The notes beneath the pieces were generated by a model, which was given only the letters and a program-made list of their open reading frames with translations, was not told the origin of the DNA and ran no database searches. This document shows, in pieces, positions 2,262 to 2,592 of a stretch of DNA of 64,000 nt (the first letter of the stretch is position 1; each line of letters begins with the position of its first letter). Source of the stretch: Klebsiella phage vB_KpnM_Tauntaun_ER47; the sequence record PP738783.1. One strand, written 5' to 3'. The translations under genes were made by a program, and so were the position numbers.

Positions 2262-2592
2262 ATTTAGCGGGGAACGGGATCAAAGCGGCCTGACGGGGTA
2301 ATATAAAAATTTGAAGAAAATGCTTGACCTTTTAAAATCTTTGATCTATAATAATTATTAATTAAAATTTTATCAAAAAGATCTAACAAGATCAAGTAAA
2401 ATTTAATAAATAATTTATCAAAAATTTTTAGATCTGATCTTGAATTCATAAATTTTATGATCTATAATATATTAATATTTTATTTTATCATAAATTTTTA
2501 TGAAGATCAATACTTAGATCTAATAAATTTTATGCTTTTTCTGAAAACTTTTCCTTTACCCCGTCACTAAATACTGGTACTATGTTCCCATA
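2262..2592. promoter_or_regulatory. AT-rich regulatory element with two sigma70-type early promoters and about 10 GATC sites in TAGATC(A/T)-type heptamers
   Basis: Promoter 1: TTGACC 2324-2329, 17-nt spacer, TATAAT 2347-2352. Promoter 2: TTGAAT 2440-2445, 17-nt spacer, TATAAT 2463-2468. GATC sits directly upstream of both -10 boxes. Repeated TGATCTA/TAGATCT motifs. Confidence 0.6.

Follow-up and report, generated by a model that had tools for sequence, protein, structure and literature searches.

The DNA considered here is a 64-kb stretch of the genome of Klebsiella phage vB_KpnM_Tauntaun_ER47 (PP738783.1), which belongs to the KP15/Miro type of the genus Slopekvirus within the T4-like family Straboviridae. 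The whole stretch is called the window, and plain coordinates refer to positions in it. It contains a 370-bp divergent intergenic region, flanked by a homologue of gene 3 on the left and a gene for a protein of 262 amino acids (aa) on the right, in which GATC sites, the potential targets of a Dam methylase, are densely clustered in AT-rich DNA. This region, referred to as hub B, shares its sequence and its architecture of predicted promoters with two further hubs (A and C) located at other gene junctions of the same genome. The coordinates of all features are collected in Table 1.

Clustering of GATC sites in hub B

The first-pass annotation of this region, which was made from the nucleotide sequence without database searches, had reported about 10 GATC sites in about 330 bp of DNA with less than 25% GC. 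Nine sites indeed start within positions 2262-2592 (at 2278, 2343, 2380, 2390, 2431, 2436, 2459, 2505, and 2517), whereas the tenth one (2247) belongs to the ribosome-binding region of gene 3, shortly before this interval, and the low GC content was confirmed by the measured value of 0.24. About 0.7 GATC sites are expected in this segment, and 0.5 in its AT-rich core according to mononucleotide composition. First-order Markov simulations of the core (5000 runs) yielded a mean of 0.8 and a maximum of 5 sites and never reached the 8 sites observed there, so the cluster is real and non-random. With 10 GATC sites, positions 2247-2577 show the top count among all 331-bp segments of the 64 kb. When the three hubs are pooled (876 bp), GATC occurs 22 times, compared to 0-3 times for each of the 15 other tetramers containing one A, C, G, and T. 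The window as a whole contains 453 GATC sites, compared to 254 ± 16 in dinucleotide shuffles, but this general 1.8-fold excess does not account for the more than 10-fold local excess. The overall GATC density amounts to 6.6-7.1 per kb in the window and 6.7 per kb in the sister genus described below, and to 1.5 and 0.6 per kb in 3.4-kb samples of the uvsY regions of phages T4 and JD18, respectively.

The same annotation had assigned almost all of these sites to a heptamer, TAGATC[AT]. This assignment was overstated, since the six matches within 2262-2592 cover five of the nine sites (2343, 2380, 2431, 2459, and 2517). The unit that is actually repeated is not the heptamer but a quasi-palindromic promoter module of 75-115 bp. 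The heptamer is not raised in total number, with 16 copies in the window compared to a shuffle expectation of 14.6, but it is concentrated locally, because 11 of these copies fall within two regions of ~300 bp (2342-2522 and 36830-37022). Of the 22 hub GATC sites, 15 are flanked by TA on one or both sides, compared to ~28% expected from the composition of the hubs and 5.5% of the GATC sites genome-wide; five of these flanks are the TA of a TATAAT hexamer. The gaps between the GATC sites were also inspected for helical phasing, and no consistent periodicity was found.

Architecture of the promoter modules

All promoters mentioned here are consensus predictions. Both sigma70-type promoters named in the first-pass annotation (P1 and P2) were recovered in an independent consensus scan, each with a GATC site at -16 to -13, in agreement with the proposed overlap of GATC sites with promoter elements, and positions 2100-2750 contain 12 promoter-like sites, compared to 2.7 ± 1.7 in shuffled sequences. 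P1 and P2 belong to two repeat units that are tandem copies with a spacing of ~116 bp. The underlying module consists of two face-to-face sigma70-like promoters, designed as TTGAnn-17-(GATC)TATAAT in the rightward and as TTGATC-17-TGaTAAAAT in the leftward direction, whose -10 hexamers are 14-20 bp apart. Judging from this geometry, one shared, ultra-AT-rich center would be melted regardless of the direction in which the RNA polymerase binds. Positions 2420-2531 form a quasi-palindrome of 112 nt centered near 2475, with a z value of -5.0 for the fold of the single-stranded DNA, and the corresponding value for the whole of hub B is -6.5.

The GATC sites of the hubs are located beside the -10 hexamer (GATCTATAAT, five of whose six copies in 175 kb lie inside hubs), in or beside the -35 hexamer (TTGATC, GATCTTGAAT), near -45, and in the spacers. 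In hub B, they abut or overlap the -10 region of P1 and P2 and the -35 hexamers of PL1 and PL2, and one lies beside the -35 hexamer of P2. As read from the alignments, about a dozen GATC positions stay independent once the positions aligned between units are collapsed, and because these are unaligned across the units, duplication alone fails to explain the GATC excess. A reading of the sequences further indicates that the 8-mer TTAGATC[AT] is present in seven copies, most of which precede a -35 hexamer by 0-9 nt. The position of P3, the promoter-like site closest to the 262-aa gene, is conserved in the sister genus, where it reads TTGACC-17-TATCAT (AATAAATA).

Two other assignments of motifs in this region were rejected. 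The potential MotA box TGCTTGA at 2322-2328 sits 19 nt from the -10 hexamer rather than the 11-13 nt of a middle promoter, and the clade lacks MotA; a CRP-like reading of TGATCTA was discarded because the half-site is, by eye, TTTGA and not TGTGA.

Three homologous hubs per genome

A pseudo-genome of 175 kb was composed of positions 1-100853 of phage Miro, the window, and the tail of the Miro genome. It contains exactly three AT-rich segments of ~300 bp (19-22% GC), and all of them harbor a GATC cluster, with 9, 8, and 5 sites in hubs A, B, and C, compared to 1.0, 0.8, and 0.5 in Markov simulations (P ≤ 2e-4 each); six shorter AT-rich segments contain one GATC site in total. Hub B can be aligned with hub A over 150 bp at 70% identity (E = 1e-15) and, in inverted orientation, with hub C over ~110 bp (E = 3e-13), and when used as a query it finds three matching places in nearly every Slopekvirus genome. 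Each hub is made up of one or two copies of the quasi-palindromic module, and the one of hub C (36822-36909) is inverted relative to hub B. The five GATC sites of hub C (36832, 36886, 36937, 36976, and 37018) are all in TAGATC context on the plus strand. An Rfam scan of the Slopekvirus hubs, the elements of the sister genus, and their flanks gave no match, and no description of the hubs was found in the literature on Slopekvirus or KP15 promoters, methylation, origins, and transcriptomes.

Some further details of the hubs may be mentioned. The left edge of each hub carries the motif ACGGGG(A/T)TA(A/T)T (36748-36758 in hub C, 2293-2303 in hub B, and, outside the window, 31795-31805 in hub A), which on the minus strand reads TAnnnT followed by CCCCGT and might mark the boundary of the hub or represent the first transcribed nucleotides of a leftward promoter. 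Hub A contains a perfect 18-bp palindrome centered on GATC (CTACAATGATCATTGTAG, 31915-31932), which serves as the 17-nt spacer of a leftward promoter-like site (TTGACC...TAAAAT), resembles the inner stem of the sister-genus element (CTACAT...ATGTAG), and is followed by four GATC sites within 25 bp (31969-31993).

The hubs may be compared with the PeSL cassettes of T4-type phages, which Arbiol, Comeau and Krisch are said to have described in 2010 as compact elements of ~45 bp with a GC-rich stem-loop that extends over the -35 hexamer and the spacer. Both kinds of elements are repeated and homogenized early-promoter cassettes in T4-type genomes, but the hubs are ~300 bp long, contain 20% GC, are rich in GATC, and occur only at three conserved junctions. 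The ordinary early promoters of the phage are represented by a PeSL-like family of ~11 copies (aaaaagCCCTTGACTtcggtcaGGGGCttttgtTATATT), and no GATC was found among the copies listed. An assignment of the hub modules themselves to the PeSL type was rejected, as they contain no GC-rich stem-loop and the genuine PeSL-like copies elsewhere differ in sequence. In this family (aaaaagCCCTTGACTtcggtcaGGGGCttttgtTATATTgg), the GC-rich stem-loop separates the -35 from the -10 hexamer. One copy is located at 55653-55700 on the plus strand of the window, and others are present at positions 11174, 25663, 56267, 66876, 83684, 94267, 95963, 100375, and 173604 of the pseudo-genome.

Conserved positions in the sister genus

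The closest other lineage consists of the RB43-type phages (Pseudotevenvirus), whose UvsY, 262-aa homologue, and Dam show 82, ~80, and 88% identity to the respective Slopekvirus proteins. AT-rich GATC hubs are absent from this sister genus despite its equal GATC density and the presence of Dam. It possesses instead a palindromic element of another type in exactly three copies, which are located at the rnh/orf52, gene 3/p262, and gene 24/uvsY junctions and apparently have not been described before. This element consists of GC-rich inverted arms (GAGCGAAGCGA...TCGCTTCGCTC) around an AT core (TTTATATTTTATATATAGAGAAAA), with a z value of -5.2 and compensatory differences between the copies in the inner stem (GTACTG/CAGTAC versus CTACAT/ATGTAG), and is followed by a sigma70-like promoter directed toward the right-hand gene. 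It shares with the hubs the number of copies, the junctions, and the AT-rich core inside inverted arms, and an alignment between the genera is possible for the late motif and the proximal promoter in front of p262. It differs from them by its GC-rich arms, by the lack of tandem promoter modules, and by containing only 2-4 GATC sites per hub, which are variable between lineages.

As judged from the sequences, the positions are thus conserved, while the elements themselves have been replaced between the genera and their copies homogenized within the genome. The presence of a different element at the same junctions therefore argues for a constraint on the positions and not on the sequences. The more distant T4-like phages T4, JD18, and Phi1 have ~40-75 bp in front of uvsY, and the upstream DNA of T4 uvsY is not AT-rich. 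The TA flank is found at seven of the nine hub GATC sites of the sister-genus phage BHU20, but a cross-genus conservation of the flanking TAGATC motif was downgraded because the sites are not conserved among the sister-genus lineages. The co-occurrence of Dam and GATC hubs was likewise dropped as evidence, since the sister genus also has Dam and the co-occurrence is therefore uninformative.

Dam methylase and possibly Dam-sensitive promoters

The proposal that the phage encodes its own Dam is borne out by an open reading frame (ORF) predicted to code for a Dam-family methyltransferase of the D12 class with putative GATC specificity (Table 1). The Klebsiella host has a Dam as well, and the T4 dam gene is not known to confer a phenotype. 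An overlap or close contact of GATC sites with the -35 or -10 hexamers of sigma70 promoters is shared by the hubs with IS10 pIN, the IS50 transposase promoter, P1 cre, and dnaA P2, and by analogy with these a replication-coupled, hemimethylation-dependent change in the activity of the hub promoters is conceivable. However, these known promoters contain one or two GATC sites each, whereas the hubs carry 5-10 sites on both strands, which are arranged in palindromic promoter pairs and repeated at three homologous loci of a lytic phage.

Relation to known replication origins

The replication origins of T4 consist of a promoter and an AT-rich unwinding element (~50-100 bp after the promoter), and the transcript serves as an R-loop primer (PMC3016281). 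An early promoter is used by oriE, and oriE, oriF, and oriG are all found near transcription-divergence and skew switches (PMC3016281). MotA-dependent middle promoters drive oriF and oriG. The RB43-type phages lack MotA (PMC1524935), and any origin located in a hub of this clade would therefore need early-type promoters. A layout of promoter and subsequent unwinding stretch is present in hub B, where ~90 bp consisting almost entirely of A and T follow P1 and likewise P2. The T4 oriF is annotated at the start of uvsY, whose transcript is the primer, and hub C resembles it in being located directly upstream of uvsY and containing promoters that read into this gene. Hub C also shares with the T4 origins the combination of sigma70 -10 elements and an AT-rich, easily unwound stretch, and hubs A and B are found, like oriE, oriF, and oriG, at points of transcription divergence and skew switches. 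They match junctions 2.2 and 3.3 kb away from T4 oriG and oriE, respectively, and the cumulative GC skew shows minima at 32 kb (hub A) and at 106 kb (hub B being located at 103.3 kb, followed by the minus-strand genes 2 and 4). In contrast to the hubs, the T4 origins share no motif, are neither palindromic nor GATC-rich, and have no sequence homology to the hubs. An origin-like function, which had been proposed already in the first-pass annotation, receives indirect support from the three homologous hubs, the oriF position, the divergence points and skew minima, and the sister element at the same junctions.

The same annotation had compared the cluster to the GATC arrays of Escherichia coli oriC and phage P1 oriR. 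Dense GATC sites in AT-rich DNA are found in all hubs (9, 8-10, and 5-6 per ~300 bp in hubs A, B, and C, at 19-24% GC), and a density of 9-10 GATC sites per 300 bp of easily melted DNA is comparable to that of oriC, which contains 11 GATC sites per 245 bp; a Dam methylase is also available in each of these systems. Still, the hubs do not belong to the oriC/P1 oriR class, because they contain no DnaA boxes (TTATNCACA, with up to one mismatch), no GATCTnTTnTTTT 13-mers, and no iteron-like direct repeats besides the promoter modules. The IHF consensus was not found in the hubs either. T4-type phages replicate independently of DnaA. A further difference from oriC and oriR is that the GATC sites of the hubs are embedded in promoter modules. 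SeqA binds cooperatively to pairs of GATC sites that are ~31 bp or less apart, and many pairs in hubs A and B fall within this range, with gaps of 14, 5, 12, and then 5, 8, and 8 bp in hub A and of 10, 5, 23, and 12 bp in hub B. The gaps of hub C amount to 54, 51, 39, and 42 bp.

Table 1. Positions of the hubs, their promoters and repeats, the related elements of the sister genus, and the genes referred to in the text.
Feature	Position	Strand	Remarks
Hub A	rnh/orf52 junction, genome 31.8-32.1 kb, outside the window		9 GATC
Hub B, AT-rich divergent intergenic region	2262-2592; gene 3/262-aa gene junction, 103.3 kb in genome	.	9 GATC, 8 of them in core; AT-rich core ~2300-2555
Hub C	36745-37046, between gene 24 terminator and uvsY; ~137.8 kb in genome		19% GC; 5 GATC plus one just inside uvsY
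P1, TTGACC-17-TATAAT (11/12 matches)	2324-2352	+	GATC 2343-2346 at -16 to -13
P2, TTGAAT-17-TATAAT (10/12 matches)	2440-2468	+	GATC at -16 to -13 (2459), beside -35 (2436), and at ~-44 (2431)
PL1, TTGATC-17-TGaTAAAAT, extended -10, facing P1	2367-2395	-	GATC 2390 in -35; 2380 in spacer
PL2, TTGATC-17-TGaTAAAAT, extended -10, facing P2	2482-2510	-	GATC 2505 in -35; 2517 upstream
P3, proximal promoter-like site, TTTACC-17-TACTAT	2555-2583	+	CTAAATA (2567-2573) in spacer; before 262-aa gene
Repeat unit 1 of promoter module	2323-2411	+	homologous to unit 2 (73%), hub A, and hub C (reverse orientation)
Repeat unit 2 of promoter module	2439-2528	+	copy number varies between isolates
Left arm TGACGGGGTAA of perfect 11-bp inverted repeat bracketing AT-rich core	2291-2301	+	extends to 42-nt arm with 74% complementarity
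Right arm TTACCCCGTCA of inverted repeat	2556-2566	+	overlaps -35-like TTTACC of P3
Sister-genus element, three copies	BHU20 (PV893168) 55981-56120, 126450-126606, 160473-160627
Sister-genus element, further sequences	L019-L022 ~1250-1440; L005 ~1270-1440
Gene 3 homologue (tail completion, sheath stabilizer)	1714-2244	-	left gene of divergent junction
262-aa protein gene, phrog_7322	2614-3402	+	right gene of divergent junction
uvsY homologue	37047-37463	+	right neighbor of hub C
Phage Dam, D12-class N6-adenine DNA methyltransferase, DPPY motif	51560-52411	+	PF02086, E = 1.7e-34

Discussion

The combined properties of the hubs are best explained by regarding them as Dam-coupled early promoter and unwinding hubs, which form a Slopekvirus-specific family of three members; this is proposed tentatively, as a serious possibility rather than a probable one. 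Under this assumption, the hubs would act as strong early promoters and DNA-unwinding elements, and the host RNA polymerase, still unmodified, would use them on the Dam-methylated DNA that has been injected. The first rounds of replication would then render the GATC sites of the hubs hemimethylated, which would change the strength of the promoters and/or their occupancy by the host SeqA, and the activity of the hubs would thereby become linked to the state of replication of the phage DNA. By analogy with the R-loop primers of T4 oriF and oriE, the hub transcripts may also prime origin-dependent replication. A more far-reaching version, which is considered unlikely, would assume three fixed origins at the conserved junctions of KP15/RB43-type phages, whose sequences were swapped between the genera and which in Slopekvirus would contain facing promoters and fire in a Dam-dependent manner, either via sequestration by SeqA or via methylation-dependent melting. 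If this was true, the origins at the conserved junctions would combine an R-loop origin of the T4 type with an epigenetic licensing device similar to that of oriC.

Several points weigh against Dam-coupled promoter and unwinding hubs. Spurious matches to -10 and -35 hexamers are common in AT-rich DNA, and the 5-6 GATC sites per 300 bp of hub C are matched by coding segments. The sister genus encodes Dam without possessing GATC-rich hubs, and the GATC clusters are therefore not required for the role of the conserved positions. The gaps of 39-54 bp in hub C are too wide for cooperative binding of SeqA according to the range of ~31 bp given above. As to the T4 origins, only hub C matches one of them exactly in position, with oriE and oriG being 3.3 and 2.2 kb off, and the GC-skew minima are not independent evidence for origins, because they coincide with transcription divergence. 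Finally, no published experiment or public dataset recording transcription, methylation, or replication initiation at the hubs was found.

The simplest alternative would be that the hubs are plain clusters of strong early promoters and that the GATC sites are passengers of a duplicated module (e.g., ATGATCTATAAT, or TTGATC as a variant of the -35 hexamer), with no role of methylation. The duplication of units within and between the hubs, the variable copy number between isolates, and the positional homology across the units of the GATC sites beside the -10 and in the -35 hexamer are all consistent with this idea, as are the generally high GATC content of the genome (1.8-fold) and the absence of GATC-rich hubs from the same junctions of the sister genus. 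It is nevertheless regarded as rather doubtful, since about a dozen non-homologous GATC sites are present in ~500 bp of non-redundant hub sequence, where by our own estimate from base composition less than one is expected, no other tetramer of the same composition is enriched, and neither other AT-rich segments nor the listed ordinary early promoters contain comparable numbers of GATC. About equally doubtful is an interpretation of the hubs as replication origins of the T4 oriF/oriE type, in which the facing promoters would open the shared AT center, and methylation would lower the stability of the duplex and/or SeqA would block re-firing. The evidence for this is all positional or architectural, consisting of the three copies at junctions shared with the sister genus despite the replaced sequence, the position and oriF-like architecture of hub C, the location of hubs A and B at both skew minima and divergence points (as for T4 oriE, oriF, and oriG), and the AT-rich palindromic cores. 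Moreover, the module of hub C most similar to the rightward promoter of hub B points away from any gene, and the primers of T4 oriE and oriG are antisense as well. On the other hand, the hubs are located exactly where the flanking genes need promoters, the skew is confounded by the direction of transcription, and the T4 origins lack the shared motif, the palindromes, and the GATC richness of the hubs.

A role of (T)TAGATC(A/T) as operator of a phage or host DNA-binding protein, perhaps a methylation-sensitive one as OxyR or Lrp at Dam-regulated promoters, would account for the overrepresented TA flanks of the GATC sites in the hubs and in those of BHU20, the uniform strand and context of the sites in hub C, and the preferred location of TTAGATC[AT] upstream of -35 hexamers. 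This explanation appears quite unlikely, because five of the TA flanks belong to TATAAT hexamers and the flank is missing at 7 of the 22 sites, the positions of the motif relative to the promoters vary, the flanking sites of the sister genus are not conserved between lineages, and no candidate for a binding protein was found beside the hubs. A mobile or recombinogenic cassette (either MITE-like or representing a second PeSL-like class of shuffling elements) or a methylation-controlled packaging site similar to P1 pac is considered very improbable. It could be invoked because hub B is bracketed by a perfect 11-bp inverted repeat and, compared to T4, forms an insertion that also includes the 262-aa gene, and because the element is repeated, varies in copy number, and coincides with the breaks of several assemblies. 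However, hubs A and C lack the terminal repeats of hub B, and the three positions are common to the sister genus and therefore do not represent random insertions. The pac site of P1 consists of two clusters of TGATC(A/G) hexamers on either side of the cleavage site and depends on Dam for being cut, whereas T4-type phages package their DNA by a headful mechanism without a pac site. A P1-pac-like packaging site was rejected on the basis of the TGATC[AG] counts, which are 0 in hubs B and C and 3 in hub A.

To our knowledge, the replication origins and the control of early transcription are essentially unknown outside T4, and the origins of T4 cannot be found by homology because they share no motif. 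The hubs represent a recognizable three-copy element with positions conserved across two genera, whose Slopekvirus version carries an oriC-like load of Dam sites, and thus offer specific targets for mutation, as candidate origins or master early promoters, in a group of phages that is widely employed against Klebsiella. Clusters of Dam sites in promoter or origin regions are already known as such, and the new aspect here is that palindromic promoter pairs are present in three copies at conserved positions in the genome of a lytic T4-like phage. If the hubs were indeed Dam-coupled, they would provide a role for the conserved phage Dam and add to the cases in which methylation serves as a clock coupled to replication; if the GATC sites were inert, the hubs would still represent a second class of repeated promoter cassettes beside the PeSL. 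The presence of the hubs also accounts for the breaks and the variation seen at these loci in many Slopekvirus assemblies.

Variation among isolates and flanking genes

More than 100 genomes of KP15/Miro-type phages match positions 1800-3200 with 99.9-100% identity. The copy number of the units in hub B varies between isolates, with VAC13 carrying an additional 28-bp duplication and R2_1 an extra unit of ~115 bp and a run of Ns, and several GenBank assemblies start, end, or break inside hub B (e.g., LC768481, LC768478, and PP273509). In phage phiEap-3, none of the seven substitutions affects a GATC site, with 0.8 being expected, which means that the divergence within Slopekvirus is too small for a test of conservation. 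Some GenBank records contain annotated ORFs inside the hubs ("hypothetical protein" or "tail tube protein", e.g., a 61-aa ORF at 2264-2449 on the minus strand), which are probably spurious. These small ORFs should be regarded as non-coding, because the GATC sites occur in all three frames, the 28-bp duplication of VAC13 would shift the frame, and the hubs can be aligned with each other only with indels.

An apparent loss of 6 of the 10 hub GATC sites by G>A and C>T changes was observed in CPRSB (OM971649, 66000-80000, compared to window positions 1735-15754). This assembly is rich in errors (69 indel columns were counted over 14 kb, and its genes are broken into many pieces), which explains the loss best, and the latter was therefore not accepted as real divergence. 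The substitutions of CPRSB fall into GATC sites in 23 of 119 cases (19%, compared to 3.6% of the bases, ~5-fold) and affect 21 of 127 GATC sites, with one substitution being found in 27 CCWGG sites. These discrepancies may represent base-calling errors at modified GATC sites and would then give an indirect and unproven hint of Dam methylation in the virion.

Genes 3 and 2 of T4 are direct neighbors on one strand, separated by 106 bp, and hub B and the 262-aa gene therefore appear from the sequence comparison to be an insertion between these two genes. Motifs resembling late promoters (CTAAATA) face outward on both flanks of hub B, beyond its AT core. They are found at 2261-2267 (minus strand, ~20 nt upstream of the start of gene 3), 2567-2573 (plus strand), and also at 9215 (plus strand). 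The genes downstream of them, which are gene 3, the 262-aa gene, and one for a 642-aa structural protein, respectively, begin after 20-45 nt. Most late genes of this genome are preceded by the canonical TATAAATA. CTAAATA may be a variant late promoter, in which case the 262-aa gene would be transcribed both early and late. Neither the 262-aa protein nor the products of orf52-54 gave matches in Pfam or the Protein Data Bank (PDB). The label "internal protein" given to the 262-aa gene has as its sole basis the N-terminal sequence MTHLKKFKEFLTE, which we presume to resemble the capsid-targeting leader of T4 internal proteins with its LxE site for protease cleavage. The C-terminal ~50 residues of the 262-aa protein form a separate module (phrog_9411), and a paralogous stretch of 57% identity to this module is encoded elsewhere in the sister genome, at BHU20 34475-34627.

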